This document shows, in pieces, positions 959-31,612 of a DNA stretch of 64,000 bases. Positions within the stretch are counted from its first letter, which is position 1, and every line of letters starts with the position of its first letter. The position numbers and the translations under genes were made by a program. The DNA comes from an uncultured virus (IMG/VR IMGVR_UViG_3300031565_013700) (Duplodnaviria > Heunggongvirae > Uroviricota > Caudoviricetes). The notes beneath the pieces were generated by a model. It was not told where the DNA came from. It did not search any database and saw only the letters and a list, made by a program, of their open reading frames with translations. The stretch is taken from IMG/VR virus record IMGVR_UViG_3300031565_013700. One strand, given 5' to 3'.

Positions 959-1126
959 ATGGCGCAAGAGCCCCAATATCCTCTGCTTAGGTGTACTAAA
1001 TGCGGCTTTGAGGACATCCTTATTCAAGGAGTATTCGCAAACTGCCCTAAATGCGGCGGTAAACTAGAGTTAGTTGAGATGGTAACTCCAAACAGTCTAT
1101 ATTGGAAAGCTTCAGTTCACAACTGA
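959..1126 (+). CDS. small zinc-ribbon protein (not in ORF track)
   Basis: GAGGTGA SD; MAQEPQYPLLRCTKCG...CPKCGGKL; stop lies inside hairpin element at 1112. Confidence 0.65.
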   Translation: MAQEPQYPLLRCTKCGFEDILIQGVFANCPKCGGKLELVEMVTPNSLYWKASVHN

Positions 1127-1150
1127 GCACCTGGAGTACGCGTACAGGTG
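1112..1150 (+). promoter_or_regulatory. two-hairpin leader element, copy 1
   Basis: TCAG-TTCACAA-CTGA G CACCTG-11nt-CAGGTG. Confidence 0.8.
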
Positions 1151-1155
1151 AAAGC

Positions 1156-1323
1156 ATGACCGACTACAAAAAAGAGTTCAAACAAAGAGCGGAAACCTTT
1201 AGGGCATTCTCTCAAATGCTAAGCGACGATACCATAGAAATCAGCAACACACGCCTGCTCCAGATGGTCTGTGACCAGCTGGCTGAGCTCGCAGACTACT
1301 TAGCTGAACAGGTGGGAAAGTGA
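1156..1323 (+). CDS. hypothetical protein
   Basis: ATG after element SD; track start 1102 runs through the element. Confidence 0.6.
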   Translation: MTDYKKEFKQRAETFRAFSQMLSDDTIEISNTRLLQMVCDQLAELADYLAEQVGK

Positions 1324-1665
1324 ATGGGCGACATCATTTGCCGCAATTGCGGCGAGCCATGGGATGCCTATGGCGCCAGGCACGGCGACGATATGAGCCC
1401 TAGCGAATATCAGATGCTCATTAAGGGCATCGGTTGCCCCTCCTGTGAAGGCAAAACCATATACATCTGTAAAGCCAAAGATGAAGGCTGCTCAGACTAC
1501 AAGGATGGCAGATGTTACCGACCGGACCCTCTGGGGTGCAAGGACAAGACCCGTTGGAGGCCAAACAATGACGCTTTCTTGTCCAGTCTATCAGAGAGCA
1601 CGGATGGCGATGAGGCCCTGGACGCAGTCATGGATCTCGAGTTCCAGGAGAGGCGCAAAGGATGA
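1324..1665 (+). CDS. Cys-rich zinc-binding hypothetical protein
   Basis: CRNCGEPWD, GCPSC motifs. Confidence 0.7.
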   Translation: MGDIICRNCGEPWDAYGARHGDDMSPSEYQMLIKGIGCPSCEGKTIYICKAKDEGCSDYKDGRCYRPDPLGCKDKTRWRPNNDAFLSSLSESTDGDEALDAVMDLEFQERRKG

Positions 1666-1810
1666 TAACCGTTTTCAGCGACGACCCTGATGGATTCTGG
1701 TGGGTTCACCTATTCAATAGGGAGGAGCTGCGAAACCACGTGCACCGCAGGGAGATCGTAAGGCACAACAGGATCGCCTATAACTGGAGCCCATACTGGG
1801 AGTAAAGATC

Positions 1811-2101
1811 ATGACAACCACATATCCCACGGAGAAGACAGCCATAAAGATGGGTGTCTACTTTGCCACGGGAAGCAGGGATGGAGAGCCTACTTTCGTA
1901 GAGGAGCAGGAGATGACAACTGCGCTGTCCGAGATGATGCCTGAGATGGCCAAGCACTTCGGAGACCAGCCTGTGAAGAAGGTGAAGGTCTACGAGATCG
2001 TGAATAGCAAGGGCGGTAAAGCACAATTCGCGGTGGGCCCATTCAGGGATGGCTACGAGTTATGGCTCATCGGACCTGGAGGCATGATGCTGAGAACATG
2101 A
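1811..2101 (+). CDS. hypothetical protein
   Basis: GGAG SD, packed ORF. Confidence 0.65.
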   Translation: MTTTYPTEKTAIKMGVYFATGSRDGEPTFVEEQEMTTALSEMMPEMAKHFGDQPVKKVKVYEIVNSKGGKAQFAVGPFRDGYELWLIGPGGMMLRT

Positions 2102-2201
2102 CCACATTGATCGTATGTAAGAAAGGCCGACACTATCCCAGCTGCCCCAAAAACAAGAAGAACAAGCTCGGCTGCGCTAGATGTAAGGATGGAAGAAAGG
2201 C

Positions 2202-2378
2202 GTGACAAAGACACGGGAACAGCTCGAGGCTGAGTGGGCCCGACTCTATCCTATGCACAAAAAGGAAACACTTGAGGCCTACAATGACACTGTGAGGAGA
2301 GGAAATAAGCAGACCTACTCCGAGTTCGTTGAGGCTGTCCGAAAGGATTGGGTCGAGGAAATGCTAAAGAAACCATGA
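2202..2378 (+). CDS. 58 aa hypothetical protein (not in ORF track)
   Basis: GTG...TGA, MTKTREQLEAEWARLYP...EEMLKKP. Confidence 0.5.
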   Translation: MTKTREQLEAEWARLYPMHKKETLEAYNDTVRRGNKQTYSEFVEAVRKDWVEEMLKKP

Positions 2379-2472
2379 CAGTCCACATGGACAACCCGGA
2401 GTAAAGCAGCATCCTGCAGCCGATGGAAACATCGGGGAGCCGGGTTAACTCGAATGTGAACAGGTGAATAAC

Positions 2473-2667
2473 ATGTCTGTAAGAGAAGAGATCATAGAGA
2501 TCCTCAAGAAAAGCGGCGACTGGATGACGACGCATGAGATCAACTTCAAGCGGCGGGGCTGCTCAAGTATCACGGGAGCAGAGTTGGCCATGATGCTAAG
2601 GGCAGACCTCGTGGAGAGGAAATATGAGGATTCTCAGAACCACTATAGGCTAACGAAATCCGTGTAA
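2473..2667 (+). CDS. small winged-helix protein
   Basis: EIIEILKK..WMTTHEI...ELAMMLRADLVER pattern. Confidence 0.6.
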   Translation: MSVREEIIEILKKSGDWMTTHEINFKRRGCSSITGAELAMMLRADLVERKYEDSQNHYRLTKSV

Positions 2668-2668
2668 C

Positions 2669-2708
2669 CTCGGCTCACTACCGGGCACCTGGTGAATGCG
2701 TACAGGTG
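2669..2708 (+). promoter_or_regulatory. two-hairpin leader element
   Basis: CTCGG-CTCACTA-CCGGG CACCTG-GTGAATGCGTA-CAGGTG. Confidence 0.85.
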
Positions 2709-2713
2709 ATGAC

Positions 2714-3025
2714 TTGCCAACATGGATATATCCTGAGCGGGATGAGGCTTTCCTAAAGAAGCTGCTTGAAACATTCAGATCAAAACCAGGGTGGGAACAT
2801 ACTGAGATATACCAATCCCAGCATGTCCTGAAACACAGAACAAACGGTGAGTTGACCAACCCCCAATATCTAGCCACGATGGACCCCAAAGGCATCGGAG
2901 GTGACAAGGTTCATCTCTGGCGAGACGGGCAGACATGGTGGCCTATGAGTGGGGATTTTTCATTCGCTGATGAGGATTTGATCGAGTCAACACTCAGTTC
3001 CTTGCTCAGTTCAGAACTGAAGTAA
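2714..3025 (+). CDS. hypothetical protein
   Basis: TTG after element SD. Confidence 0.6.
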   Translation: MPTWIYPERDEAFLKKLLETFRSKPGWEHTEIYQSQHVLKHRTNGELTNPQYLATMDPKGIGGDKVHLWRDGQTWWPMSGDFSFADEDLIESTLSSLLSSELK

Positions 3026-3041
3026 CAAAGGAGCAGATGAA

Positions 3042-3398: not shown

Positions 3399-3438
3399 CC
3401 GGGTTCACTACCCGGCACCTGGTGAATGAGTACAGGTG
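3399..3438 (+). promoter_or_regulatory. two-hairpin leader element
   Basis: CCGGG-TTCACTA-CCCGG CACCTG-GTGAATGAGTA-CAGGTG. Confidence 0.85.
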
Positions 3439-4480: not shown

Positions 4481-4520
4481 GCGGTGTCAAAAGCCGCCCT
4501 CTGGTGAATGCGTACAGAGG
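4481..4520 (+). promoter_or_regulatory. two-hairpin leader element (GTCAAA loop variant)
   Basis: GCGGT-GTCAAAA-GCCGC CCTCTG-GTGAATGCGTA-CAGAGG. Confidence 0.8.
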
Positions 4521-5583: not shown

Positions 5584-5623
5584 CCAGGTTCACGACCTGG
5601 CACCTGGTGAACGCGTACAGGTG
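5584..5623 (+). promoter_or_regulatory. two-hairpin leader element
   Basis: CCAGG-TTCACGA-CCTGG CACCTG-GTGAACGCGTA-CAGGTG. Confidence 0.85.
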
Positions 5624-6768: not shown

Positions 6769-7034
6769 CCATGAGCCTAATCCAGACCTTCACAACCATA
6801 GGACCACCGGATTCTCATGGCTCCTACTCGAAGCAGAGAATAAAATGCCATCTAGTCAACAAAGAAGTCATTCTAACGGCCCAACAGCAGGGCATAGTGA
6901 CCTGCAGCGAATGGAAGAAGTGCCAAAAGCACAGACAGCGTGGCATCAAGCCCTGCCCCGAGCTTTTCGCGGAGGCCGTGCTTAGAAAAACGTTGATAGA
7001 CTCCGGAAAGGTAGGTCTAAAGTATGGCAAACGA

Positions 7035-7077
7035 CCCGACGGAAACGCGGGCTCCCGGCCTAAACACTGAACGGGAG
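7035..7077 (+). promoter_or_regulatory. two-hairpin leader element (GAAA loop variant)
   Basis: CCCG-ACGGAAACG-CGGG CTCCCG-GCCTAAACACTGAA-CGGGAG. Confidence 0.65.
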
Positions 7078-7085
7078 AAAAAGAT

Positions 7086-7664
7086 ATGAAGATACTATAC
7101 TTCCGACCGGATACAGTGGATTGCACAGCCGATCCACACGTGGTAAACTACAGCGACAGGCAGGTAATGCTAGACGATGTGCTGAAGGTACTAGAATCAA
7201 AGCTAGTGAAGTCGATAACAAGCATCACTGTCTACAATGGCAGCAACACGGTCCTAGAGTCAGACGACTACTCGGTTTTCAGTGGCTCCTACAGCAAGGA
7301 CGAGCCCCCGACAAGGAAACTGGCCACCGGCGAGTATGCCAAGATCCACAAGGTGGAAGGACTCTACTTCTCGGAGGACGCGGCAGACGACAGGAAGATC
7401 CCAGTTGGCTTAACGGGGTTCAGGCATCTCATGAAAGTCATTCCCGAGATTCTTCCCTGGGAATCCTTCGACTCCATCAAGATTGGGGTCGTCTGGGCCT
7501 TTTCCAATGACCACAGCTGCTCGGACTACATCACCGCCGACTTCGCAGAGAGCACCGTCGATTACAGCAACCAGGACTGGTGGATGAGCAACATAAGCTA
7601 CAAGCAGCACTGCCGGGAGCTTTCCGAGCTCATAGGCCAAGAGATAGAGGCGAACGAGGAGTAA
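7086..7664 (+). CDS. hypothetical protein
   Basis: 192 aa, ATG after variant element. Confidence 0.7.
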   Translation: MKILYFRPDTVDCTADPHVVNYSDRQVMLDDVLKVLESKLVKSITSITVYNGSNTVLESDDYSVFSGSYSKDEPPTRKLATGEYAKIHKVEGLYFSEDAADDRKIPVGLTGFRHLMKVIPEILPWESFDSIKIGVVWAFSNDHSCSDYITADFAESTVDYSNQDWWMSNISYKQHCRELSELIGQEIEANEE

Positions 7665-7822
7665 ACGATGGTCGAAGAAGATCCCCATCTCATTGCTCTG
7701 AGCATGGCCGAGAAGATCAAGGATCCCCAGACTAGGGCCACTCTCAGCTACATGCTGGGTATGCTCAAATTCCTAGATATAAAAGTCCAGGACCTCGAGG
7801 CAAAGGTGGTTGCGTTAAGCAA

Positions 7823-8632
7823 ATGATGCAGATACCACATGAATGCATTAACCGAATACCCTTCGATAACCCCAAGCCACTTACTGCCCACATACTGCTG
7901 AACACCGAGTGCAACCTTGGTTGCGATGGATGTTTCTACAGAAAGCGGGAGCCGAAGGAAATTAGGCTTCAGGATCTGACACTGCTGCTGAAGGACCTCG
8001 CCTTGGGCGGGGTGCGATCGGTCGCCTTTGGAGGCGGGGAGCCCATGCTTTACAGCATGATCGACTCCGCAGTGGCGGAGGCAAGGAGCCTTGGCCTGTA
8101 TGTGGCTGTGACCACGAATCCCACGACCAGGCATGTTTTCAGCATACCACCGGACAGGATTCATGTCAGTTACAGCGCGATGCACTACCGAGCCATACGA
8201 AAGACCGGCGCCCTGCCCTTCGATGAGTTGAAGAAGGCCCTGAAGTTCTACGGTGGGCAGGCTATGACGATTGGCATTAACTACATCTACGAGAACTTTG
8301 CCCACTTCAAGCTGCTTAATGAGTTGACGCCGGAGGCGGACACCTTCACTATACTGCTGAAGAAGCCGGTGGAGAAGAGACAGAGGAAGCCCGATTACTG
8401 GGCACCGATGTTCGAGTACATCAAGGAAGACAGGGAGAGGTTCTGGATTGACGCTTGCCTAGTGAAACTGGTTAAGGGCACCCACTGCAGACAGGGCATA
8501 TCCAGCCTCAGCATCGACCAAAATCTCTTTGCTCACAGATGTTCAAACACCGAGCGGGCATGGCCATATACCACGCTGAAGGAAACCTGGGAACAGGTCA
8601 AGACATTCGACGAGTGCATATTATCGGGTTAA
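7823..8632 (+). CDS. radical SAM protein
   Basis: CNLGCDGC (CxxxCxxC), GGGEP, TTN, C-terminal SPASM/twitch-like Cys. Confidence 0.85.
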   Translation: MMQIPHECINRIPFDNPKPLTAHILLNTECNLGCDGCFYRKREPKEIRLQDLTLLLKDLALGGVRSVAFGGGEPMLYSMIDSAVAEARSLGLYVAVTTNPTTRHVFSIPPDRIHVSYSAMHYRAIRKTGALPFDELKKALKFYGGQAMTIGINYIYENFAHFKLLNELTPEADTFTILLKKPVEKRQRKPDYWAPMFEYIKEDRERFWIDACLVKLVKGTHCRQGISSLSIDQNLFAHRCSNTERAWPYTTLKETWEQVKTFDECILSG

Positions 8633-8667
8633 CTACCCGACTCCTGGCCTAAAAAACTAAGCAGGAG
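8624..8667 (+). promoter_or_regulatory. two-hairpin leader element
   Basis: TCGGG-TTAACTA-CCCGA CTCCTG-15nt-CAGGAG. Confidence 0.85.
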
Positions 8668-9168: not shown

Positions 9169-9208
9169 CTCGGTTCACTACCGAGCACCTGAAGTATGCG
9201 AGCAGGTG
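9169..9208 (+). promoter_or_regulatory. two-hairpin leader element
   Basis: CTCGG-TTCACTA-CCGAG CACCTG-AAGTATGCGAG-CAGGTG. Confidence 0.85.
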
Positions 9209-10023: not shown

Positions 10024-10063
10024 CTAGGTTCACTACCTAGCGCCTGAAGTATGCGAGCAGGCG
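10024..10063 (+). promoter_or_regulatory. two-hairpin leader element
   Basis: CTAGG-TTCACTA-CCTAG CGCCTG-AAGTATGCGAG-CAGGCG. Confidence 0.85.
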
Positions 10064-10704: not shown

Positions 10705-10739
10705 TTATTTATTACAGTGTTCTATACCACAGTATAGAC
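10705..10739 (+). promoter_or_regulatory. TATA-like box plus operator-like dyad
   Basis: TTATTTATTA then TTCTATAC-CACA-GTATAGAC. Confidence 0.6.
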
Positions 10740-10744: not shown

Positions 10745-10787
10745 GCGGTGTCAAAGCCGCTCGGTGGCCTAAATATGCGAACACCGA
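10745..10787 (+). promoter_or_regulatory. two-hairpin leader element (GTCAAA loop variant)
   Basis: GCGGT-GTCAAA-GCCGC TCGGTG-GCCTAAATATGCGAA-CACCGA. Confidence 0.8.
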
Positions 10788-12707: not shown

Positions 12708-13172
12708 ATCACGACCAAACCGAAGGCAGGATCTCAACAGCAACTCGCTAAGCAAGGGCTGCGAAGATGCAGGACCTGTGGAGAGATTAAGCCTCTTCCA
12801 GATTTCTATCAACGGGCTAATGGACATTATCTATCAGAATGCAAAGTCTGTCTTAGAACCAAGATCAACAAGGGATACAGAGAAAAGCACGCTGAAATTA
12901 AGAAAGCAAGGCAGAGACAGTATTACAAGGAGAACCCGGAATACTATAAAGACTATGCGGCTAAAGGCGCACATGTTAGAAATGTAGCAAAGAGTGTGCC
13001 AATGAAAGATTACTGTGAAGAATGTCTACGAACGAAAGAAGAACTCCTCAAATTGAATATCATACTAACAAGGCATCATGAGGATTATAGCAGACCTAGG
13101 GAGTTTGAGACTCTGTGTTCGGAATGTCATGGCAAACAAAGAAGAAAAAAGGAGGAAATGAAAAATGAGTAG
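12708..13172 (+). CDS. zinc-finger/HNH-like endonuclease with probable ATC start (not in ORF track)
   Basis: 154-codon open frame CRTCGEIKPLPDFY...CKVC...CEEC...HHEDYSRP...LCSECH; GGAGG just before ATC; no ATG/GTG/TTG between upstream in-frame stop (12672) and the zinc finger. Confidence 0.75.
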   Translation: MTTKPKAGSQQQLAKQGLRRCRTCGEIKPLPDFYQRANGHYLSECKVCLRTKINKGYREKHAEIKKARQRQYYKENPEYYKDYAAKGAHVRNVAKSVPMKDYCEECLRTKEELLKLNIILTRHHEDYSRPREFETLCSECHGKQRRKKEEMKNE

Positions 13173-14184
13173 TTTAATGTTATGTGAGACAGGCAGTGAG
13201 AAAGACCTGGACAATCCCCTTATGGCCGCGGAGTTGAAGGCGGATGGAACCCACGTCATGGCAAAGAAGGCGGACGGGAAGATCAAGATATTCGGGCGCC
13301 CCAAGAAGACGGGCATACCTGAGTACACTGATCGTCTGCCAGACTTGATCGAGTCGCTGGAGGTTCTTTCCGCAAGCAGCTTCGAGATCGTGGGGGAGGC
13401 CGTGGTCTACGATGAGAACAACAGGACCTGGTTCGAAGGCAGTCAGCGACGCTGCAGCACACAGGATCCCGCAAAGATACGGCTCTACCAAGCACAGTAT
13501 CCGATCATCCTTCTAGCATTCGATATCACTGAGCTGGACGGAAAGGACACCACGGGATATACCTACCAGTCGAGAAAGGAAATGCTCCTGGACCTCATAG
13601 AGGAAACACCACAGACCCATGTGGAATGGCTGCCGCATGTAGTTGATAACAAGAGAGACTACTACAACAACGTGATAGCCCAGGGTGAAGAAGGAGTCAT
13701 CCTCAAACGACTCAATAGCACCTACGAGCGACGCAGATCAAAGAGCTGGCTTAAAGTGAAGAAATGGGATGCCGAGCGACTCAAGGTCGTCGGCTTCACA
13801 GAGGGCACGGGAGACAGGGCAAGCACCTTCGGCAGTCTGGTCCTCGCTAAGCTCGAGGACGATGGCAGTCTGCGGTACAGAGGCAAAGTTGGTACAGGCT
13901 TTAATGACATAGAGGTGAAGAAACTGTATACATTGCTTACAGCGAATGTGGCAGATGTGACAAAGATCATAACACCTGAACCGTATACGCCCGTGGAACT
14001 ACCACTCGAGGTTACAGTAAAGTTCTTCGAGGAAACCAAGAACCACGTCATAAGGTTCCCGTCGATGCTCAAAGACGAGCGGGGGAAGAACATGATCCAC
14101 TACGAGTCGACCATCGAAGGCAAATCTCAGAAGACGATCAAGCAGAGAGACTTGAAGGCCCTCCTGGAGAGCTTAACCAAGTAA
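13165..14184 (+). CDS. ATP-dependent DNA ligase (LigC/LigD ligase-domain type)
   Basis: ELKADG (KxDG), GEAV, AFDI, EGVILK, WLKVK, GKVGTGF, RFP. Confidence 0.92.
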   Translation: MSSLMLCETGSEKDLDNPLMAAELKADGTHVMAKKADGKIKIFGRPKKTGIPEYTDRLPDLIESLEVLSASSFEIVGEAVVYDENNRTWFEGSQRRCSTQDPAKIRLYQAQYPIILLAFDITELDGKDTTGYTYQSRKEMLLDLIEETPQTHVEWLPHVVDNKRDYYNNVIAQGEEGVILKRLNSTYERRRSKSWLKVKKWDAERLKVVGFTEGTGDRASTFGSLVLAKLEDDGSLRYRGKVGTGFNDIEVKKLYTLLTANVADVTKIITPEPYTPVELPLEVTVKFFEETKNHVIRFPSMLKDERGKNMIHYESTIEGKSQKTIKQRDLKALLESLTK

Positions 14185-15855: not shown

Positions 15856-16060
15856 GTGAAGTAAGAAAATGCCCTTATGAGCCAGAGGTAAACTGTCTGG
15901 GAAAACGCTGTGATATACCAAAACTAGTAACCTTGGAACGCTGTTGGATGGTCAAAGATGAGAAGGCGAAGAGGAGGAACAAGACTCGAAAGTAACCCCG
16001 GTGCAACTCCGAGCTCACCGAAAGCGTGGGTGAGAAAATGGAATACTGGAGAGTGAGATA

Positions 16061-16348: not shown

Positions 16349-16351
16349 TCG

Positions 16352-16753
16352 ATGTTTGAGTTCGAAGGAGTCGAATTTCTTGGCCCGAGCCTCGTCATGG
16401 GCAACAAGGAAGGGAGACCCGTTTTCGAGATGAAGCGCAAGGATCCGAGTGGGGGCAAGATGTATTACATCTTCAAGGTCCATGAGGAGAACATGACGGC
16501 TGAGGAGAAGACAGGATTCAAGGTAGTCTTCGAGACTCTGATATTGCCCGCAGCAGCCAAGCTGGATCTCCCAATGTATTCATTCGATGAGATCCTCGAG
16601 AGAAGCACCGAGAAGATCGAGGAGATAGGAGTGGAGAACTTCCCAAAGGATGGCAGTCAGATCGATGTCAAGATAGAGGTCTATGATCACGCGGCGAAGA
16701 ACTTAGACAACCTGACGGTTGGATTGAATGTCGGACAGAGTAAACCATCATAG
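16352..16753 (+). CDS. hypothetical protein
   Basis: Packed ORF ending at an element. Confidence 0.65.
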   Translation: MFEFEGVEFLGPSLVMGNKEGRPVFEMKRKDPSGGKMYYIFKVHEENMTAEEKTGFKVVFETLILPAAAKLDLPMYSFDEILERSTEKIEEIGVENFPKDGSQIDVKIEVYDHAAKNLDNLTVGLNVGQSKPS

Positions 16754-16790
16754 AGTTCACTACTCTACCTTCGATGAATGCGTGCGGAGG
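16751..16790 (+). promoter_or_regulatory. two-hairpin leader element
   Basis: TAGAG-TTCACTA-CTCTA CCTTCG-ATGAATGCGTG-CGGAGG. Confidence 0.85.
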
Positions 16791-16797
16791 GATGGAA

Positions 16798-17190: not shown

Positions 17191-17191
17191 C

Positions 17192-17231
17192 CCGGGTTCA
17201 CTACCCGGCGCCTGGTGTAAGCGTACAGGTG
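17192..17231 (+). promoter_or_regulatory. two-hairpin leader element
   Basis: CCGGG-TTCACTA-CCCGG CGCCTG-GTGTAAGCGTA-CAGGTG. Confidence 0.85.
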
Positions 17232-17236
17232 AAAAT

Positions 17237-18352
17237 ATGAAGATAACAGCAAAGGACTACATCCAAGCAAGGGACAAACTAGCAGACCTAGAGGAAGGGA
17301 TCAGCCTCTTCAGAAACAGGGCCACTAGAGAAGAGATGGCGTTTGATGCGAAGATCAAGGAGCGCATCCGACTGCTGGAGGAGGAATTCCATTCGGCACG
17401 CACCAGGATAATCGATGCGAGGGACAAAATGAAGGCTCCATTAGTGGAGGAGAAGGAAAAGGCTGAGGCCTATATCCGGAAAGCGAAAGAGATCCTCCAC
17501 CACCTATCGCTCCAAGGGACCATTGAGGAGACCAGCCTGACAGAGCCGCACCCAGACTTCTACAATACCGAGATCGAGGCTGAAGGCGAGTATTACAAGG
17601 ATGACTACACATGGATTCGCTACTTCATAGTCAAGAACAGGAAACCCAAGAATTGCTACACGCTTCTGATAGCAGGTAGATCACGGTTGTGGAAGCTATT
17701 TTCAGAAGGCTCACGCTCACGCCTACTATATGATTACGGACTCCCGAATACCAAAGACGATTACACAATCTGGATCGGCATAAAGGATCTGCCCAGCGTC
17801 AAAGAACTCGTCGCATACAAGAGCAAGTATGATAAAACCAGCCGACTACAGGAATACTTCCGGGTCAGGGACGAGTATCTTGAAAACGTAACCAACTACA
17901 GCCTCAAGGACTTCGAGGAACTCAAGGTAATCAGAGATGTGCCAGAGGCCGATGCCCCGATCATCTTCGATATAAAAGGCCACGAGAAGATCAGCACCTT
18001 CCGCCTCTACAAAGGCTTCTACTATGCATCGGTAGAGGGCAAGGCAGAGGACAAGGACAAGCTGGAATATCTCAAGATAAGCGGCGAACTCTACCTCAGG
18101 GGAGGTAGAGCTGAGGGCTACACTATAAAGCAGACAGGCAACCTCGTGTTTGGGGATTGGTGGTCATTCGGCTTCGAGGCTGGTGGCTACGGAGTTCCCT
18201 TCAACAAGGAGAACTGGGAGAAGGAACTGGCTGAAGCGACCGCCTTTGTCAACGAGACAAGACGTGACAAGGGCTCAAAGACCAGCTTCACCCCACCACA
18301 GATAACCTGGATTCATCCTGAGTTAATCCCCGCTATTCCATCTTTTTTCTAG
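17237..18352 (+). CDS. hypothetical protein with N-terminal coiled coil
   Basis: 371 aa ORF bounded by elements. Confidence 0.75.
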   Translation: MKITAKDYIQARDKLADLEEGISLFRNRATREEMAFDAKIKERIRLLEEEFHSARTRIIDARDKMKAPLVEEKEKAEAYIRKAKEILHHLSLQGTIEETSLTEPHPDFYNTEIEAEGEYYKDDYTWIRYFIVKNRKPKNCYTLLIAGRSRLWKLFSEGSRSRLLYDYGLPNTKDDYTIWIGIKDLPSVKELVAYKSKYDKTSRLQEYFRVRDEYLENVTNYSLKDFEELKVIRDVPEADAPIIFDIKGHEKISTFRLYKGFYYASVEGKAEDKDKLEYLKISGELYLRGGRAEGYTIKQTGNLVFGDWWSFGFEAGGYGVPFNKENWEKELAEATAFVNETRRDKGSKTSFTPPQITWIHPELIPAIPSFF

Positions 18353-18413
18353 TGGGTTCATTACCCACCCTCTGACCACAATGGCACTACCTAGATAAAG
18401 AAGCCGTGCAGAG
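18352..18413 (+). promoter_or_regulatory. two-hairpin element with disrupted or expanded second hairpin
   Basis: GTGGG-TTCATTA-CCCAC CCTCTG then 34 nt before CAGAG. Confidence 0.6.
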
Positions 18414-18984
18414 ATTCAAACCCAAATGGGATCAACCCAAGACGGGTTTAGAGAAATTTATGGATATGCCCAGAAATGACAAAACCCCCCAAAGACGAAT
18501 CACCTTCCGAAGACCCCAACCAGAACAAAGACCTTCAAACCCTAAATATGAACGACTCTCCAGCTACCTAGACGAAGAGAACAAGAAGGCCGAGATCCTA
18601 GATGACAGGACCGCCCGGATTCCCTGCGAGAGCAGCAGCCCCTCAGGGTGGTGTTTGCTAAGACGCACTCCACCGGGGCAGAAGACAGTGGACCAGCTCC
18701 TCTTTGTTGGAGACATCATTGATACAAACTATAGCACAGGCGGAAAAGTGATCTATATCGCACGTCATGAATACTACGGTCTGTTCGCCTACTCTCTGAT
18801 CTATGTGGACGTCGACGCTCCAGCTAACAAGGATGGCAACTATCGAGAGAATCATCAATGTTACATCAACGAATTGGTGGCCCAGGATGATAGAATACTG
18901 AAACTCTTCAAGGCAAATGAGGATGAAGTGTTCATCAAAGGAAAAGCAGCGGGACAGCAGACCCTTCTCAGGTTCACTACCTGA
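18406..18984 (+). CDS. hypothetical protein
   Basis: ORF bounded by elements; start uncertain. Confidence 0.6.
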   Translation: MQRFKPKWDQPKTGLEKFMDMPRNDKTPQRRITFRRPQPEQRPSNPKYERLSSYLDEENKKAEILDDRTARIPCESSSPSGWCLLRRTPPGQKTVDQLLFVGDIIDTNYSTGGKVIYIARHEYYGLFAYSLIYVDVDAPANKDGNYRENHQCYINELVAQDDRILKLFKANEDEVFIKGKAAGQQTLLRFTT

Positions 18985-19010
18985 CACCTGACCTAACACG
19001 TGAGCAGGTG
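18968..19010 (+). promoter_or_regulatory. two-hairpin leader element
   Basis: TCAGG-TTCACTA-CCTGA CACCTG-ACCTAACACGTGAG-CAGGTG. Confidence 0.85.
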
Positions 19011-19354: not shown

Positions 19355-19393
19355 TCAGTTCACAACTGATCCTCCGATGAATGTGTGCGGAGG
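19355..19393 (+). promoter_or_regulatory. two-hairpin leader element
   Basis: TCAG-TTCACAA-CTGA T CCTCCG-ATGAATGTGTG-CGGAGG. Confidence 0.85.
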
Positions 19394-20186: not shown

Positions 20187-20230
20187 GAGAGTTCACCACT
20201 CTCCCTCTGACCCGAAAATACGAGCAGAGG
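20187..20230 (+). promoter_or_regulatory. two-hairpin leader element
   Basis: GAGAG-TTCACCA-CTCTC CCTCTG-15nt-CAGAGG. Confidence 0.85.
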
Positions 20231-20574: not shown

Positions 20575-20579
20575 TTGAC

Positions 20580-20623
20580 GAGAGTTCACCACTCTCCCTC
20601 TGGCCTAAAAATGCGAGCAGAGG
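20580..20623 (+). promoter_or_regulatory. two-hairpin leader element (before ParB)
   Basis: GAGAG-TTCACCA-CTCTC CCTCTG-GCCTAAAAATGCGAG-CAGAGG. Confidence 0.85.
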
Positions 20624-20625
20624 AT

Positions 20626-21861
20626 ATGCCAAAAGAACTACCAAAGCCAGGAGACAAACTAAGTATCAATAAGCTGAAGGACCCTGAAGTTGTTTTACAT
20701 CCCCAAATATCCAAGTGGAGGGATGACCTTGTCTTTGACCCTTTACTGTATAACAGTTTAGAGCAAGGACAGATACAGCCAATAGTGTTCAGAAAGCTGA
20801 AGGATAGGTTTGAGCTCCTTGCTGGCTCTAGGAGATACTTCCATCAGAAGTTACGCGGAGTATCTTGGGATGACTTGTATAAAGACATCCGCGAAAACGT
20901 ATCAGACCGTGACGCCCTGCTATTAGCGGCGTCAGAGAACATCTTCCGAGAAGACTTCACCCCATGGGAGGAAGCCCGTGCAATCAACGATATGCTCGTG
21001 GTGGGTAAGATGAGCATCAAAGACGTTGCCACACACCTGGGGAAAAGCGAGGCCTATGTAACCAGCAGAAGAGCTCTACTCAGCCTACCTGAGAAGACAC
21101 AGAAACGCTTCGAGAAACAGGGCATCCCCATCGGCTTTGCTACACCAGTGAAGAAGCTATCTAAATTCCCTAAAGCACAGGCAGATATGCTTGAGAAAAT
21201 CATTGAAGGAAGAAAGAGCAGATACAACGGCATCAGCAAAATCGAGGAGGCCGAGGAATATGTATCCAAGCTTCTGGGGAGGGTGAAAGAAGTAGAGGCC
21301 CTGGTGAACGCCTACGGACCATGCCCAGCCTGCGGAAGCAAGAATATTACTCAAGCTCAATACGATGAAGGCAACCAACTATCATGCAACGACTGCAACC
21401 ATAGGTGGCACAAAGACACAAAGGAACCATGGAAACTCTACGAACTAAAGCAGGAGGCTGAGGAAATGGGCTTCAAAGTGGATGCGGGCCCAGAGACCCT
21501 GACGCTAACACCGAAAGACGTGGCCAACATACAGGCTCGGCAGGAACAAGAACGGAGGGAAGAGATGGACGCAGAGGCTGAGAAAGAGGCTGAGAAATTC
21601 GCTGAGAAGTTCCGGTCACCAGTCTACATCGAAGAGATCGTGATACCTTTGCTACCTGGTAACGTGCAGAAGATGAGCGTCGACGGCAACACCATCGAGA
21701 TCGAGTTGATCGAGGACTCTGGTCTACACTTCAAGGGATTGAAGAAAGACTACACAACAGGAGAGAAGGGAAGGATAGAGATCACCTACGGCTACGGGGA
21801 CACAACCCAGAAAATAGCCGAGAAAGTGCATGGCATCATAGCCAAACTTAAGAAATCCTAA
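20626..21861 (+). CDS. ParB/Spo0J-like protein with zinc ribbon
   Basis: GQIQPIV, LLAGSRR, ENIFREDFTPWEEA, HTH (IKDVATHLGKSEAYV), CPAC/CNDC. Confidence 0.85.
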   Translation: MPKELPKPGDKLSINKLKDPEVVLHPQISKWRDDLVFDPLLYNSLEQGQIQPIVFRKLKDRFELLAGSRRYFHQKLRGVSWDDLYKDIRENVSDRDALLLAASENIFREDFTPWEEARAINDMLVVGKMSIKDVATHLGKSEAYVTSRRALLSLPEKTQKRFEKQGIPIGFATPVKKLSKFPKAQADMLEKIIEGRKSRYNGISKIEEAEEYVSKLLGRVKEVEALVNAYGPCPACGSKNITQAQYDEGNQLSCNDCNHRWHKDTKEPWKLYELKQEAEEMGFKVDAGPETLTLTPKDVANIQARQEQERREEMDAEAEKEAEKFAEKFRSPVYIEEIVIPLLPGNVQKMSVDGNTIEIELIEDSGLHFKGLKKDYTTGEKGRIEITYGYGDTTQKIAEKVHGIIAKLKKS

Positions 21862-21868: not shown

Positions 21869-21913
21869 GAGAGTTCATTACTCTCCCTCTGACCTAAAAC
21901 GTGTGAGCAGAGG
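21869..21913 (+). promoter_or_regulatory. two-hairpin leader element
   Basis: GAGAG-TTCATTA-CTCTC CCTCTG-16nt-CAGAGG. Confidence 0.85.
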
Positions 21914-25589: not shown

Positions 25590-25624
25590 AAAACATATAT
25601 TCCATTCTATACCTCAGTCTATAC
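25590..25624 (+). promoter_or_regulatory. BRE/TATA-like box plus operator-like dyad
   Basis: AAAACATATATT then TTCTATAC-CTCA-GTCTATAC. Confidence 0.6.
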
Positions 25625-25724: not shown

Positions 25725-25762
25725 TCAGGTTCACGACCTGACGGGGGAAGAGAGAGCCCCTG
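25725..25762 (+). promoter_or_regulatory. two-hairpin leader element variant (before MCM)
   Basis: TCAGG-TTCACGA-CCTGA CGGGGG-9nt-CCCCTG. Confidence 0.7.
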
Positions 25763-25777: not shown

Positions 25778-27619
25778 ATGGGAGAGAAAAATAACAAGGA
25801 TATCGGAGTTTCTAAAGACTGGATCATAGCTGTACTAGAACAGAACCTAACAAAGCCAAAGAAATGGACGGAAAAGGACGTTGAACAGATCGCGGCAGCC
25901 AAACCAAAGTCGAGACTTCAAGAGCTCATAGTGGATGTCTATGAGGGGCTGCTTGAAGCCAAGAGCGCAAAGAACATAACCACGCACTTCGAGGCAGATG
26001 GAGTGCCGGAGATCATAAACCTACCCGACGAGGATTTCTTCGACAAATGGTACGAGAACAACGAACTCGAGGATTATCCACAGAAATACAAATTCGGCAC
26101 CTTCTTGAACCGCTTAGCGGCTCGCGTCGGTAAGACAGGCGGCAGCTCATATAGCGAAGAGGGCATACAGGAAACCCTCTCCAAACTAGTGAATGCCGTC
26201 ATGGAGGACCAGGACGCAATATCAATCATCGCGGAAACCATAAATACAACTTATCCTCGGCTCGCTCAGCCACCGATGGCTATGCCACAGCCAGAGAAAA
26301 TCTCTGAGTACGAGCAAACACAGTACGATAAACAAGTCGACGTTTTGCGCGAAAGCGTGGAATCCAATATAGATCAGTACCAGGACCTCATACAAGACTT
26401 AAAATCGGCAGCCAAGACAGACTTCGAGGAAATGGCCTACCAACTCAACCAGATAGTTATATTTGGGGAAGCATGCTGGGAACTTATACTTTATTCGATT
26501 ATGTCGCCTAAGGCTCCAAGAATACTGATCAATGGCCTTGACTATAGAGCAAACTTACACACATTACTTGAAGGAGACATCAGCACAGCGAAGTCGAAGA
26601 TCCTGGAGATAGCGAAGATCATATCCCCGAAGATGGTTGTAGTGGATGAAACCACGAAAGCCAGTCTTGAGGGGGTGGCGCTACCAGGTAACTCGCAGGA
26701 AATAGCTGATGGTGTCATAGACATCGCTAATGCCGGCAACATCATCATAGAGGAATTCAACCAAGCATGGGCAAAGATGTCCCTGTTCAGACGCATCATG
26801 GATGGCAAACGCATACAGATCTTCAAGAAAGGCATACCTAAAACCATAGACGTCAACACCACAATAATAGCGGCCTGCAACCCAGAGGAAGATTTCTTCC
26901 ACGAGGACCAACTATTCAGAGACCAGATCGTCTTCAAGGAAGGCATCCTCAGCAGATTCGACATACAGATACCATTGACAGCAACTACAACAGCCAACAA
27001 GATACTCGTGGATAGGCTCAACCTATTCGGTGAGGCAGAGGAAGGCATTGACCTCGACAGCCTCAAGAGACGATTGGAGCTTATCGCGTTTGGCATGGGT
27101 AGCATAAAGCGCGTCAGAATCACCGGGGATCAGCTGAATATGATCAGAGACGTCTTCAAAGAACACAACGAAACGGATCATCGCAGACGCATCTTGAAAT
27201 GGAGACCACTAATTCTTCTTAGAGACCTGGAAACTTTGGCGAGACTTGTAAACATCATAGTATCAGTGAACTTCAACAAGCGCAAAGTCGATAATGGCAT
27301 ACTCTATGCTGAAGACGAGGACGTGGAGAAAGCCATCAGGCTGTGGGAGAATCTGCTATACATGAGAATACAGCTCTACGCGAACCAAAGCAGATTACTG
27401 AAGTCACCGGCTGATGAAATAGTCCTTTACATTGTCATGGAACAGCAGAGAAGAGACGGCGGAGAAGTGCCGATAGCCGAGGTCTACACACACATAGTCG
27501 AAGTGAGCAGAATGATCAGCAGGGCAACGTTCTACAGGGAAGTCGAGAGACTCAGAAGCTCCGGAAGAATCATCCAGAATGGACTAAGAGACAGCATGTT
27601 AAAGGTGATAATAGAGTAG
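25778..27619 (+). CDS. MCM-like AAA+ helicase with C-terminal wHTH
   Basis: LHTLLEGDISTAKS, IIIEEFN, AACNP, LSRFD, RDLETLARL. Confidence 0.85.
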   Translation: MGEKNNKDIGVSKDWIIAVLEQNLTKPKKWTEKDVEQIAAAKPKSRLQELIVDVYEGLLEAKSAKNITTHFEADGVPEIINLPDEDFFDKWYENNELEDYPQKYKFGTFLNRLAARVGKTGGSSYSEEGIQETLSKLVNAVMEDQDAISIIAETINTTYPRLAQPPMAMPQPEKISEYEQTQYDKQVDVLRESVESNIDQYQDLIQDLKSAAKTDFEEMAYQLNQIVIFGEACWELILYSIMSPKAPRILINGLDYRANLHTLLEGDISTAKSKILEIAKIISPKMVVVDETTKASLEGVALPGNSQEIADGVIDIANAGNIIIEEFNQAWAKMSLFRRIMDGKRIQIFKKGIPKTIDVNTTIIAACNPEEDFFHEDQLFRDQIVFKEGILSRFDIQIPLTATTTANKILVDRLNLFGEAEEGIDLDSLKRRLELIAFGMGSIKRVRITGDQLNMIRDVFKEHNETDHRRRILKWRPLILLRDLETLARLVNIIVSVNFNKRKVDNGILYAEDEDVEKAIRLWENLLYMRIQLYANQSRLLKSPADEIVLYIVMEQQRRDGGEVPIAEVYTHIVEVSRMISRATFYREVERLRSSGRIIQNGLRDSMLKVIIE

Positions 27620-28285: not shown

Positions 28286-28328
28286 GAGGCGTCAAAACCT
28301 CCCTCTGGCCCATAAAATTGAACAGAGG
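28286..28328 (+). promoter_or_regulatory. two-hairpin leader element (before PCNA)
   Basis: GAGG-CGTCAAAA-CCTC CCTCTG-15nt-CAGAGG. Confidence 0.75.
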
Positions 28329-28336: not shown

Positions 28337-29107
28337 ATGGAAATAAAACTAGGACAGAACTACTCTGTGTTCAAGGACTGGATTAGCTTCTTGAAAATAG
28401 CCGGCGAGGAACATACTCTCGAGGCTAATGAGGAAACGATAAGGGTCCGGACCATGGATCCCAGTCATGTCCTCATGGTTGATACCACCGTTCAGAAGGC
28501 ATTATTCGAGGAGTACGACCTCGGAGGTGTGCCTGAAAAGAAGGTGACTATCAACGTCACTGAGCTATCCAAAGTCTTTGACAGAATCGGGAGCGGGAAA
28601 GACGAAAGGGTGAAATTGACCTATTCTGATGAGAAGGCCAAGTTCATCGTCAACAACACCAAAGCAGGCTACCGCAGAAACTTCGAGCTACCGGTAATAG
28701 ACACCGTGGATTCCGAGGTCCCAGAGCCCAAGATCCTCTTCAAGAGCAAGACGAGGATGATCATCAAGGCTGTGGAGACCGCCATCAAGGATGCCCTATT
28801 GGTCGGTGACCACGTGATACTCAGCCTCGATGCAAAACAGGCGACAATCAGAGGCGAAGGCGACATGGGTTCATCGCTCAGTGAATGGGAGAAAGACAGC
28901 GATGACATGCTCAGCCTCGAATCGACGGAAGACAGCAAAGCGACATACACACTCAGCCTGATCGTAGACACTGTCGGCGCCATGAAGGCCCTTGCCGATG
29001 TCATGATGATCGAACTCAGCACGGACATGCCTCTCAGAGCAGAGGCTGAGTGCACAAACCAGAACGTCAAGGCAATCGTCTACGTGGCTCCCTGCATCGG
29101 TGTCTAA
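28337..29107 (+). CDS. pcn: PCNA sliding clamp
   Basis: MDPSHV, 256 aa, archaeal PCNA pattern to YVAP. Confidence 0.92.
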   Translation: MEIKLGQNYSVFKDWISFLKIAGEEHTLEANEETIRVRTMDPSHVLMVDTTVQKALFEEYDLGGVPEKKVTINVTELSKVFDRIGSGKDERVKLTYSDEKAKFIVNNTKAGYRRNFELPVIDTVDSEVPEPKILFKSKTRMIIKAVETAIKDALLVGDHVILSLDAKQATIRGEGDMGSSLSEWEKDSDDMLSLESTEDSKATYTLSLIVDTVGAMKALADVMMIELSTDMPLRAEAECTNQNVKAIVYVAPCIGV

Positions 29108-29508
29108 AATGGATAAGGCCGAGAAGCAGGACCTCATATCCCGCATCCAGTCAAGTATCGAGAGCCTCAACAAGGTGATCGAATCAGCCACCGCCGCGAA
29201 AGTGGCCCTAGGGAATGAGATACGGAGGTTCACAGGGCAGAAGAAGATAGATGAAATAGTAGATAAATGAAATAGTGAAACAGCTTGAATACTCCTTTCA
29301 CATTCGAACCGGTAGACGAAAAACCGGAAAAAAAGAAGAGGAAAGCCACTCACAATCTAGGGAGCCTGCCTCGAAATTCGATGGTCCTGTGGTTGGAAGA
29401 AGATGGCAATAGAATACCTCTGCGATTATACATCAAGAATGGGAAGGGATTAGATTACCTGGAGTTCCAAATGATCACAAAGATCAGAAACAAGAGAGTA
29501 GAAAAAAG

Positions 29509-30000
29509 ATGGGTGTTAAAGAAAGCTATGGAGCGATAGGTTTCACAGGAACAACTAAGGCTGGGCGCTTCGATGGCCAGATCCGAGAAGGCCGCAAGAC
29601 TCAGACTATTCGGGAGCCCCGGAAAGATGGGCGCCCTCATGTCAAAGTAGGGCATCTGACTAAACTCTATTGGAAGATGAGGGCAAAGGAATGCTTCCTG
29701 ATTGCCACCGTCGAAGTTACGGCCTACGAAAAATTGGATCTGCTCGATGTCTGGTGGGACGAGGAAAATGCCAAAGCCGATGGCTTCAAGGACCTCGAAG
29801 AATTTCGTGATTGGTTCTGCCCCAATTGGTTCAAGCTTCAATCAGTAAGCAAAGAAGCGATTGAAATCGCGGCCACTCTCGATAGGGACATAACTTCAGG
29901 CATCATTGAACTCGGGAAACTTGGTAAAAGCACCACGGCTCAAGTTTTTGAGAAACTGATCCAGCCGTATTATAGAATCAAGTGGAAGCTAAGTGATTAG
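29509..30000 (+). CDS. ASCH-domain protein
   Basis: IREGRKTQTIR, AKADGF. Confidence 0.75.
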   Translation: MGVKESYGAIGFTGTTKAGRFDGQIREGRKTQTIREPRKDGRPHVKVGHLTKLYWKMRAKECFLIATVEVTAYEKLDLLDVWWDEENAKADGFKDLEEFRDWFCPNWFKLQSVSKEAIEIAATLDRDITSGIIELGKLGKSTTAQVFEKLIQPYYRIKWKLSD

Positions 30001-30355
30001 ATTGCTCAAATTTTATGTGAAAGAATCCCTGATATATCGTGATTATCGTACCTGGCCTTATGATATAACTAGAGAACAGACGGTGAAAGCAGTTCAAGTC
30101 GTCTGTCAGAGATATGGCTTGAAAATACCCGAGGTAAAATTTACAGGAAGAACACGACATTTCTGTTTATGGGCTGAAGATGTTCTCAGATTTGTTCCAG
30201 GATGCATCACGGTGGAAGATGTGGCGCACGAGCTGGCTCACTATATCCGTTCGAGAGTCTATGGTTGTCATAGACATTTCGAGCCTCTGATGGATCTGAT
30301 AGGCGAATTGATCCCTATTGTGCTTGAAGCAGTTGGCAAGAAACCGCTTTCATAA
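29993..30355 (+). CDS. HExxH metallopeptidase-like protein
   Basis: VAHELAHY...H...F. Confidence 0.55.
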   Translation: MIRLLKFYVKESLIYRDYRTWPYDITREQTVKAVQVVCQRYGLKIPEVKFTGRTRHFCLWAEDVLRFVPGCITVEDVAHELAHYIRSRVYGCHRHFEPLMDLIGELIPIVLEAVGKKPLS

Positions 30356-30382
30356 GCGGCACCTGAAGTATGCGAGCAGGTG
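30344..30382 (+). promoter_or_regulatory. two-hairpin leader element
   Basis: CCGCT-TTCATA-AGCGG CACCTG-AAGTATGCGAG-CAGGTG. Confidence 0.8.
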
Positions 30383-30539
30383 AAAACATGCCAGAATTGA
30401 AAGAAGAGCTGAAGACTGCCCTAAATATCCTAGTGGATGGTATGTACCAAAGACACAGCATACAATACTATGAAATAATCCATGAAATCAAAGACGTGCT
30501 AAACGAAATGAACCGGGAAAGAGCTCAGGAACACGCTGT

Positions 30540-31175
30540 TTGGGAAATAGTTTATCCGGAAGGATAGGACTGAAAGTGGGAACCTCCGATCAAATCATTC
30601 TAGAGTTACGGAAATACTACACCGAAAATCCACCGGATAGCATTGAAGACGAAAAGCTGAGATTGGAAACATTCGCTCTGGACTATCTATTGAAGAAAAT
30701 AGGTCCGTTGTTTCCAACCATTAAACGCAGAGAAGTTCTGAATACGCTTGAAGGGCCGAGAGAAGTAGGGAAACCGTGGTTCACAAAAGGCGGAATAATA
30801 GCAGTCTTCGAGAAGGCGGTGGTCTATGATGCTCCCCGGGATGCGATAAGCTATTGGCTCAATAAGAGAGGGCGCAAGAAGGCCTTTGGAGAATTCAAGG
30901 GATGGATGTTTGGAGAGATCCCCCTCATGGAATCCGGGGGCAGGCTGATCTTCGAATACACAATGGATGAGGTCCCCATAGAAGCTAGAAAACAATTAAG
31001 AAGGACGCTCCGCGAACACAGGATTCCTCGATGGGCTTACAACAAATACCACGCCAGGAACACTCTGAACCACTATGCTAGCCCCGGCTTCAAGCCTAAA
31101 ACGCCAAGGGAACGGGACCAGGAGATTCAAGCCAGACTTGAACGCCGGAAGCAGAGAGACTTGAAGAAGAAGTAA
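30540..31175 (+). CDS. hypothetical protein
   Basis: 211 aa ORF; start uncertain. Confidence 0.6.
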   Translation: MGNSLSGRIGLKVGTSDQIILELRKYYTENPPDSIEDEKLRLETFALDYLLKKIGPLFPTIKRREVLNTLEGPREVGKPWFTKGGIIAVFEKAVVYDAPRDAISYWLNKRGRKKAFGEFKGWMFGEIPLMESGGRLIFEYTMDEVPIEARKQLRRTLREHRIPRWAYNKYHARNTLNHYASPGFKPKTPRERDQEIQARLERRKQRDLKKK

Positions 31176-31204
31176 TTAATGTTATTACATACCATAGTCT
31201 ATAC
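31173..31204 (+). promoter_or_regulatory. AT-rich box plus operator-like dyad
   Basis: TAATTAAT then TTACATAC-CATA-GTCTATAC. Confidence 0.5.
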
Positions 31205-31573
31205 CAAAGTGATTGAAATGGAAAAGGAATTCCAATTCCTAGAGATAGACCAGATAGCCGTCCTCGAGGAGGAGTTCGAGAAGGGAGGGCGACCCTTCCC
31301 AGCCTACCTGATGAGGAAGGTCTTGGACCACATAGACCCAGAGTGGAGAAAGACGCACCCACAGTACAAGAAGATAGAGGGGTTTTAGATGATGGCGCAC
31401 TCTATCAAGAACCCAGAAAAGATACACCTGGTTGAGGAGGATGGGCGCTATCTCTGCATCAAAGCATGCAGCACCACCCCCTCAAAGTCTACAACCGATC
31501 CCCTGAAGATAACATGCAAGAGATGCCTCAGCCTCATAGAGAAGAAATAGGTGTAACAAGACGGCTCACCAAG

Positions 31574-31612
31574 CCGGAGTCACAGCCGGTCCGTGATAAA
31601 AGCGTGCACGGA
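31574..31612 (+). promoter_or_regulatory. two-hairpin leader element variant
   Basis: CCGG-AGTCACAG-CCGG TCCGTG-ATAAAAGCGTG-CACGGA. Confidence 0.65.

Follow-up and report, generated by a model that had tools for sequence, protein, structure and literature searches.

A 64,000 nt stretch of DNA from the uncultured virus IMGVR_UViG_3300031565_013700 (the whole stretch is called the window here) carries 22 intact copies of an element of 38-46 nt composed of two abutting hairpins, which is a real, well-supported and so far undescribed structured RNA family. In addition to the intact copies, one broken copy (18352) and three remnants were identified, and all were located on the + strand between 636 and 31612. 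The element marks roughly a third of the genes in a 31 kb block of replication and early genes; we infer that these genes are early from gene content and order only. Judging from predicted folds, the element may be a shared translational operator on a polycistronic early mRNA, keeping the ribosome site closed, and we assign this reading a probability of about 0.5. The window corresponded to the metagenome contig Ga0307378_10000280, with an exact match in the 100-nt stretches checked.

A preliminary description, prepared from the sequence alone, had listed the unit at 21 positions. The unit was present at all of them, and an intact copy at 636-681 had been missed. A covariance model (R1) was built from the 22 aligned copies (the 21 listed plus 636-681), and both strands of the window were searched with filters off. 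The 22 seeds were recovered at 27-52 bits, a match by construction, together with 18352-18414; the next matches had E values of at least 1.1. No match with E < 1 was found on the - strand or past 31612 in the whole window, in agreement with the earlier remark that copies are lacking past 32 kb. Of the degenerate copies proposed near 2440, 3006, 15998 and 18352, the last was recovered at 23 bits and the one at 15998 reached 12 bits, whereas those at 2440 and 3006 were recognizable by eye only, below model reporting. The ortholog of the degenerate copy at 15997 was intact in a related contig (L049, 16767-16806; 28.3 bits). A structural scan for a 4 bp stem abutting a 6 bp stem, with Watson-Crick pairs only, gave 28 sites on the + strand vs. 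4 on the - strand, and 18 of the 28 were family copies. No copies were present in the 6.6 kb of contig upstream of the window (locus L045).

As the preliminary description had supposed, the family was not represented in Rfam: no match to Rfam 15 at the gathering score was obtained across the 64 kb window, and at E ≤ 5 the sole match over 1-33000 was an unrelated snoRNA model on the - strand (E 0.84). ARAGORN detected no tRNA or tmRNA, and no Rfam match of the tRNA clan was obtained. R1 gave one match (E 0.22) across archaeal genomic loci totalling 508 kb, none at E ≤ 0.001 in 151 Bathyarchaeia-class genomes and none at E ≤ 1 in halovirus HGTV-1 (NC_021328, 143,855 bp). A pattern scan of IMG/VR returned 44 single matches; these look like chance, because R1 scored only 3 of the loci at E ≤ 0.1 and a second copy was found in none. 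The element was also missing from IMG/VR loci reached via MCM (with a single protein or a 33-sequence alignment), a pattern scan of genome contigs returned no element, and one copy, compared by blastn with 50,697 phage records, matched none of them. No description of such an element was found in a literature search. By contrast, a strict 23-base pattern scan of a metagenome collection retrieved the window's own contig, the 116 kb contig Ga0307378_10000184 (hereafter the relative) and five short contigs.

The minimum free energy (MFE) fold computed with ViennaRNA consisted of two abutting hairpins in 22 of 22 copies, with a mean of -15.2 kcal/mol and a mean z-score of -2.6 against mononucleotide shuffles. 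When the 22 window copies were aligned by plain MAFFT, with no fitting to structure, 94.9% of the cells paired vs. 67.8% in shuffles. In the same alignment, 10 of the 11 pairs changed on both sides, and partners slid by 1-3 columns paired at only 33-52%. When the 57 model matches from the window and related contigs were considered (40 distinct rows), 97% of the cells paired and two-sided changes were found at all 11 pairs, although this alignment was fitted to the model and hence leans towards it. Across the 40 copies, the + strand folded better than its reverse complement (-15.6 vs. -14.5 kcal/mol; Wilcoxon p 0.006), and G-U pairs outnumbered mirror-image A-C mismatches (6 vs. 2); both observations agree with an RNA that is read from the + strand. 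Among the unpaired positions, conservation was seen in the hairpin 1 loop (TTCAC.A) and in the 3' portion of the loop of hairpin 2 (G, pyrimidine, G, A or T, purine), and the closing pairs of hairpin 2 were also conserved.

Orthologous copies pointed in the same direction. In the 21.1 kb of the relative that were compared, syntenic blocks showed 71-91% identity to the window (most 80-87%), and 15 copies were present, all on the + strand. In 14 pairwise comparisons of orthologous copies, all stem differences kept pairing once alignment register-shift artefacts had been set aside, while the loops differed at 44 of 277 positions. The changes included a hairpin 1 pair with three states (window, A-U; L049, G-C; L053, C-G), a G-U pair of the window replaced by G-C in the relative, and a 4 bp stem extended to 5 bp by a paired insertion. 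The structural conservation with compensatory stem changes proposed in the preliminary description was thereby borne out by the pairing tests, the tests of two-sided change and the orthologous copies.

Further contacts were sought in or around the two hairpins. For a pseudoknot of the hairpin 1 loop with the Shine-Dalgarno sequence (SD) or the spacer, complementarity was seen at the consensus level, with no copy-specific signal (permutation p 0.29). Kissing of the two loops was rejected as well (permutation p 0.37; the observed value was reached by 6% of shuffles). A K-turn, K-loop or box C/D-like hairpin 2 was discarded for lack of consistent G-A pairs of the canonical kind and of a snoRNA-type Rfam match on the + strand. 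Pairing of the hairpin 1 loop with 16S rRNA was likewise discarded, since a complementary 6- or 7-mer was found in neither of two Bathyarchaeia-class 16S genes.

All 22 intact copies were followed by a start codon 1-15 nt after hairpin 2 (20 ATG and 2 TTG), opening ORFs (open reading frames) of 55-613 aa; in the relative, ATG or TTG was found by eye within 16 nt of hairpin 2 in 15 of 15 copies. The 3' tail of 16S rRNA in two Bathyarchaeia-class genomes was GGATCACCTCCT, and the 3' arm of hairpin 2 was a substring of the complement of this tail in 19 of the 22 copies. In the other three (10745, 25725 and 31574), a separate downstream SD was found, which paired in each case with the bases immediately 5' of hairpin 1. 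An SD of at least 4 nt preceded 21 of 22 element genes vs. 32 of 58 other + strand genes, and its predicted unpaired probability was 0.20 vs. 0.42 (Mann-Whitney p 4e-4). Hairpin 2 alone averaged -8.0 kcal/mol vs. -8.3 kcal/mol for the predicted duplex between SD and 16S tail; the two being about equally stable, the ribosome site is predicted to be poised shut, in balance between closed and open states. Moreover, the flanks of a copy paired better with each other than with the flanks of different copies (-7.4 vs. -5.7 kcal/mol, permutation p < 0.001; window copies alone, p 0.0008), and the predicted flank helix often covered the start codon. An SD base-paired within a conserved helix, the defining feature of SD-sequestering translational operators, was therefore found in the predicted folds, which the covariation backs. 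The strand, the start-codon distance and the location at the ribosome-binding site, with the SD in the 3' arm of hairpin 2, had all been read correctly beforehand, as had the copies preceding the ParB-like gene, MCM and PCNA, which were confirmed with Pfam and from their start codons (20626, 25778 and 28337). The mutual pairing of the flanks of many copies and the coincidence of recombination breakpoints with elements (see below) were new. Domain scans covered 98 ORF translations with Pfam, 28 ORFs with PHROGs and 45 ORFs with NCBIfam.

Placement along the genome followed the room between genes. Between 1 and 32.3 kb, 29 junctions left 29 nt or more from one ORF to the next; of these, 20 contained an intact copy, one the broken copy (18352) and two a remnant. 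Only 2 of the 31 tighter or overlapping junctions had a copy, both overlapping the end of the upstream ORF. Past 32.3 kb, all 22 + strand genes lacked a copy, even the six whose gaps measured 39 nt or more. The copies at 10745, 20187, 25725 (MCM) and 28286 (PCNA) are probably located in 5' leaders and not between translated cistrons, because they were preceded by non-coding gaps of 64-137 nt. No A/T-rich box was detected at a fixed distance upstream of the elements, and 12 of the 22 copies had none. A 9-mer, TTCTATACC, was present at 10720-10728 and 25605-25613, in the non-coding gaps before gene 10803 and MCM, with a partly repeated or inverted copy near each site. It may represent a promoter or an operator; it was not enriched overall (19 matches vs. 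12 expected). The + strand genes at 32351-46489 had different intergenic sequences, such as the A/T-rich TTTATATATTTT just before the TTG at 34778, which fits a change of expression signals where the elements stop.

Comparison with other strains revealed gene replacements with breakpoints at elements. A strain contig (L047) was 99.85% identical to window 14992-18381 and diverged inside the hairpin 2 loop of the copy at 18352; at this site it carried an intact element and a different downstream gene, whereas hairpin 2 was broken in the window. In the relative, the copy at 8619 was chimeric, combining hairpin 2 of window copy 7035 with the gene downstream of copy 8624, and the 1.55 kb between these two copies, including a radical SAM gene, was absent. 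In contigs of two other runs, a gene replacement began 2 nt after copy 10024, with aligned stretches of 112 and 69 nt beside the joint. Other read joints at elements, found in 4 DNA runs, were not counted because their aligned stretches of about 40 nt may reflect mis-joins at repeats. We propose that the repeated elements may act, as a by-product, as crossover points at which gene cassettes are shuffled between strains. The virus also encoded its own means of homologous recombination, RadA. No integrase or site-specific recombinase was found among the 98 ORFs with Pfam or in the PHROGs and NCBIfam subsets; the rest of the contig lay outside the scan.

These features can be assembled into a model of a shared translational operator. 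We infer transcription of the element, an effect on translation and the existence of a factor that recognizes it. Long + strand early transcripts would carry it as a cis-acting RNA module filling nearly every roomy intercistronic junction. The two abutting hairpins would fold, often closed by a third helix between the flanks, and the SD would be held in a duplex by hairpin 2, or by the flank helix in three copies, so that the site is poised shut. The conserved loop nucleotides would then serve as a handle for one trans-acting factor, viral or host, which could open or lock all sites together. Where the junction is internal, the flank helix and hairpin 1 might also be melted by a ribosome that terminates at the end of the upstream gene. 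More tentatively, and at odds clearly below even, one factor reading the portable two-hairpin module might open or shut at least 22 early cistrons, with the same module serving as the unit through which the early operon acquires new genes.

Several points weigh against the translational operator. The covariation was measured among paralogs that belong to two related genomes and to small contigs of related samples, and not across a deep phylogeny. The energy parameters apply to 37°C and follow bacterial-style rules, which may not be those of the presumed host, and the host itself was assigned from RadA similarity alone. The gene calls were crude ORF choices made by the analyst, and the flank helix was strong in only about half of the copies. 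None of the six listed sequencing runs containing this DNA was an RNA run. Besides Alba, no RNA-binding protein was found in the scanned window ORFs, and nothing ties Alba to the element. Of the two binders suggested in the preliminary description, Alba was confirmed, while an ASCH domain was not found in the ORFs scanned. An AbrB/MazE-fold gene and the Alba gene form a pair that lies a short way downstream of the last element; both products are candidate nucleic-acid binders, with nothing linking either of them to the element.

Other explanations share part of this evidence. The hairpins might punctuate the RNA, as an endoribonuclease site or a stabilizing cap by which the long early transcript is cut into mRNAs the size of single genes or the mRNA ends are protected, much as RNase III sites of phage T7 and tRNA punctuation direct the cutting of transcripts. 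The elements sit exactly at cistron boundaries and show conserved loop nucleotides on variable stems, as recognition by a protein would give, and the outline of hairpin 1 resembles a canonical tRNA T-arm (5 bp, G-C closing pair, 7 nt loop starting with TTC). The fifth loop base, A in the usual T-loop, was however C in most copies, and the ARAGORN and Rfam searches, even at E ≤ 5, revealed nothing tRNA-like. Processing alone also leaves unexplained why the SD is always in a helix, and why a second helix with the flank occurs where hairpin 2 is not SD-like. We regard punctuation as rather unlikely, and it may coexist with translational control. Somewhat less credit is given to translational coupling without a trans factor, in which the structure would block independent initiation and the cistron would be read only by ribosomes arriving from the upstream gene. 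In 13 of 22 copies, no more than 14 nt separated the beginning of the upstream stop codon (of an ORF of at least 57 aa) from the first base of hairpin 1, in two more the stop lay inside the element, the 5' strand of the flank helix lay in the last codons of the upstream ORF, and the element was absent from genes overlapping their upstream neighbour, all of which would suit coupling. Yet a ribosome at the stop codon, given usual footprint sizes, would reach hairpin 1 and usually not hairpin 2. A factor is favoured over coupling alone because loop positions, whose conservation coupling would not need, are conserved across copies with differing stems, and because the four copies that follow the 64-137 nt gaps have no upstream ORF whose ribosomes could reach them.

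The remaining two explanations operate on DNA. Hairpins in single-stranded DNA might serve a recombinase, in the manner of integron attC sites, with cassette exchange as their purpose; this we consider quite improbable. The breakpoints inside elements at 18352 (L047) and in the chimeric copy at 8619, together with the replacement 2 nt after 10024, agree with such a site, as do variable stems with kept structure and the single orientation of all copies. No recombinase was found in the ORFs scanned, however, and the viral RadA with the sequence shared between copies would suffice for homologous exchange. The fixed start-codon spacing of 1-8 nt, the SD inside an arm and the better + strand fold point to RNA instead, and many of the read joints had only the roughly 40 nt alignments that may be repeat artefacts. 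That the repeats are early promoters, like those of halovirus HF2 or the motif of HGTV-1, would have precedent in archaeal tailed viruses according to excerpts of two reports (PMC8707807; PMC3950731), and would accord with the position upstream of early genes and with a run of at least five A/T that, as judged by eye, about 10 of 22 copies carry in the hairpin 2 loop. The A/T-rich box missing from 12 of 22 copies, and nowhere at a fixed upstream distance, speaks against a promoter, as does the hairpin 2 loop, which lies only about 17-25 nt from the start codon with the SD in between. Compensatory stem changes would also be unexplained, and R1 found nothing in HGTV-1, so that a promoter cassette appears very improbable. 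The shared translational operator is accordingly retained as the preferred reading.

Besides the genes listed in Table 1, a HerA-like ATPase, an HNH nuclease and, on the - strand, a tail tube protein were identified with Pfam. The DUF5131 protein and the carbamoyltransferase of the middle region may be nucleotide or DNA modification genes. Repeats with a period of 42 nt at 55023-55166 and 63326-63597, within the - strand ORFs 53946-55259 and 62953-63960, probably encode 14-residue protein repeats. No close deposited phage or archaeal virus was found, megablast with 20 kb of the window giving no match. The best tblastn matches of MCM were halovirus MCMs, with 26-32% identity over a quarter of the protein. 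For RadA, the best matches were Bathyarchaeia metagenome-assembled genomes at up to 63% identity; an archaeal host of Bathyarchaeia type is only a working guess, because this similarity is the sole host clue. The viral MCM had no match at E ≤ 1e-40 in 401 Bathyarchaeia-class genomes. Homologues of MCM numbered 98 at E ≤ 1e-20, with 29-64% identity (most at least 45%), several on contigs of 87-120 kb, and this sequence similarity suggests a sizeable, undescribed group of archaeal viruses of roughly 100 kb.

Table 1. Element copies, remnants and annotated genes of the window (element scores are those of model R1).
Feature	Position	Strand	Details
Element copy (absent from the preliminary list)	636..681	+	37.3 bits; ATG 687; inside 3' end of ORF 242-682; MFE fold two hairpins
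Element copy	1112..1150	+	43.9 bits; ATG 1156
Remnant: hairpin 1 5' arm fused to 3' end of hairpin 2 loop and arm, then ATG	2440..2478	+	by eye; no model match at E ≤ 10
Element copy	2669..2708	+	47.2 bits; TTG 2714; hairpin 1 G-U, G-C in relative
Remnant: hairpin 1-like stem-loop without hairpin 2, then SD and ATG 3042	3006..3040	+	by eye; no model match at E ≤ 10
Element copy	3399..3438	+	51.6 bits; ATG 3445
Element copy	4481..4520	+	44.2 bits; ATG 4529
Element copy	5584..5623	+	49.3 bits; TTG 5630; hairpin 1 third pair A-U (L049 G-C, L053 C-G)
Element copy	7035..7077	+	27.8 bits; ATG 7086; overlaps stop of ORF 6771-7070; left border of 1.55 kb cassette
Three-gene cassette between two elements	7086-8632		192 aa, 52 aa, 269 aa radical SAM protein (weak viperin-like, QueE-like matches)
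Element copy	8624..8667	+	40.2 bits; ATG 8674; right border of 1.55 kb cassette
Element copy	9169..9208	+	52.0 bits; ATG 9214
Element copy	10024..10063	+	50.2 bits; ATG 10071
Element copy, hairpin 2 arm not SD-like	10745..10787	+	27.0 bits; ATG 10803; 64 nt non-coding gap upstream
Degenerate copy, hairpin 1 broken, hairpin 2 intact	15997..16034	+	12.1 bits; E 1.1
Element copy	16751..16790	+	44.8 bits; ATG 16792 or 16798
Element copy	17192..17231	+	49.2 bits; ATG 17237
Broken copy: hairpin 1 and hairpin 2 5' arm intact, then sequence changes	18352..18414	+	23 bits; E 0.004
Element copy	18968..19010	+	45.8 bits; ATG 19017
Element copy	19355..19393	+	43.2 bits; ATG 19402; hairpin 1 4 bp, 5 bp in relative
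Element copy	20187..20230	+	43.2 bits; ATG 20239; 116 nt gap upstream
Element copy before ParB-like gene	20580..20623	+	46.7 bits; ATG 20626
Element copy	21869..21913	+	39.3 bits; ATG 21915
Element copy before MCM, hairpin 2 arm not SD-like	25725..25762	+	29.3 bits; ATG 25778
Element copy before PCNA	28286..28328	+	27.7 bits; ATG 28337
Element copy	30344..30382	+	36.9 bits; ATG 30388
Last element copy, hairpin 2 arm not SD-like	31574..31612	+	33.5 bits; ATG 31626
ATP-dependent DNA ligase	13165-14184		Pfam
ParB-like protein	20575-21861		Pfam; start codon 20626
MCM	25778-27619		Pfam
PCNA	28337-29107		Pfam
AbrB/MazE-fold protein	33721-34008		4 nt overlap with Alba
Alba	34005-34262		Pfam
DUF5131 protein	35045-35848		Pfam
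Terminase-like match	36549-38168		PHROGs
RadA, full-length	40784-41809		Pfam
Carbamoyltransferase	42006-43727		Pfam

The known kind closest to the element is the PeSL (promoter-early stem-loop) cassette of T4-type phages. According to excerpts of two reports, PeSL cassettes are about 100 bp long and are defined by a sigma-70-type promoter and one G/C-rich terminator hairpin, and crossovers have been located in the repeat itself, in one case in the loop (PMC2839356, PMC4122927). Like PeSLs as described there, the element forms dispersed, co-oriented intergenic cassettes that contain a stem-loop and lie among small, mostly unknown early genes; its 3' end supplies the SD and the start codon of the gene that follows; and the gene cassettes flanked by it differ between close relatives by insertion, deletion or replacement, crossovers falling in the repeat. 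It differs from the PeSLs of those excerpts in its length of 38-46 nt, two covarying hairpins, SD inside a helix and presumed archaeal host, and in having neither a promoter motif (with TATA box and B recognition element, BRE, as the archaeal analogue) nor a T-run after the stem-loops. Archaeal intrinsic termination is said to need oligo-T.

In archaeal tailed viruses, two repeat families invite comparison. The class I and II repeats of halovirus HF2 (7 and 2 copies) are, in the available excerpt, proven promoters of conserved sequence, in which a TATA box at -26 is accompanied by a BRE and the mapped start of transcription falls within the repeat (PMC8707807). The element resembles them, as far as that excerpt goes, in that it too lies upstream of early-to-middle genes of an archaeal tailed virus, with place and orientation conserved among relatives; unlike them, it has no TATA box or BRE in most copies, and the excerpt describes no covarying structure for HF2. 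In HGTV-1, a conserved motif containing a TATA-like stretch as well as an inverted repeat precedes most left-arm ORFs and was likened to PeSLs, again according to part of the report (PMC3950731). A conserved inverted-repeat motif before most ORFs of one arm of an archaeal tailed virus is thus common to both, whereas the sequence and structure family is different, R1 being without a match in HGTV-1, and the element lacks the defining promoter feature.

In its likely working principle, SD sequestering, the element most resembles translational controls of bacteriophages. In Mu Com acting on mom mRNA and in the MS2 coat-protein operator, the SD or start codon lies in a hairpin, with an adjacent protein-binding hairpin. 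The many-target logic is that of T4 RegA, one factor that acts on many early mRNAs at unstructured sites, whereas the mom and MS2 replicase sites are single. The element differs from all three as a structured module in 22 copies, and its factor is only postulated here. Integron attC sites, each of which is a single long hairpin that pairs imperfectly, bears core sites and extrahelical bases and depends on an integrase, are likewise structure-conserved, sequence-variable and co-oriented between promoterless gene cassettes; the element departs from them in its two short perfect hairpins, its link to SD and start codon, and the lack of an integrase in the ORFs scanned. Set beside these systems, the element is a mobile regulatory cassette acting at the ribosome site instead of the promoter.

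To our knowledge, very little is known about the timing of gene expression in archaeal viruses, and almost nothing where the virus belongs to an uncultivated lineage, Bathyarchaeia being one example. Here one small RNA module with strongly covarying stems suggests that a block of genes is controlled after transcription, where the comparable repeats of haloviruses and T4-type phages are promoter cassettes. With R1, the many related contigs of about 100 kb that have homologous MCM genes could be searched for this control system, and the element offers a plausible route by which genes could be swapped between such viruses while their expression signals are kept. If the proposed reading is true, new genes would arrive with ready-made, switch-controlled translation signals, and the element would represent a structured, multi-copy translational regulon, the first to be described from an archaeal virus, and an RNA-level counterpart of PeSL-like promoter cassettes.

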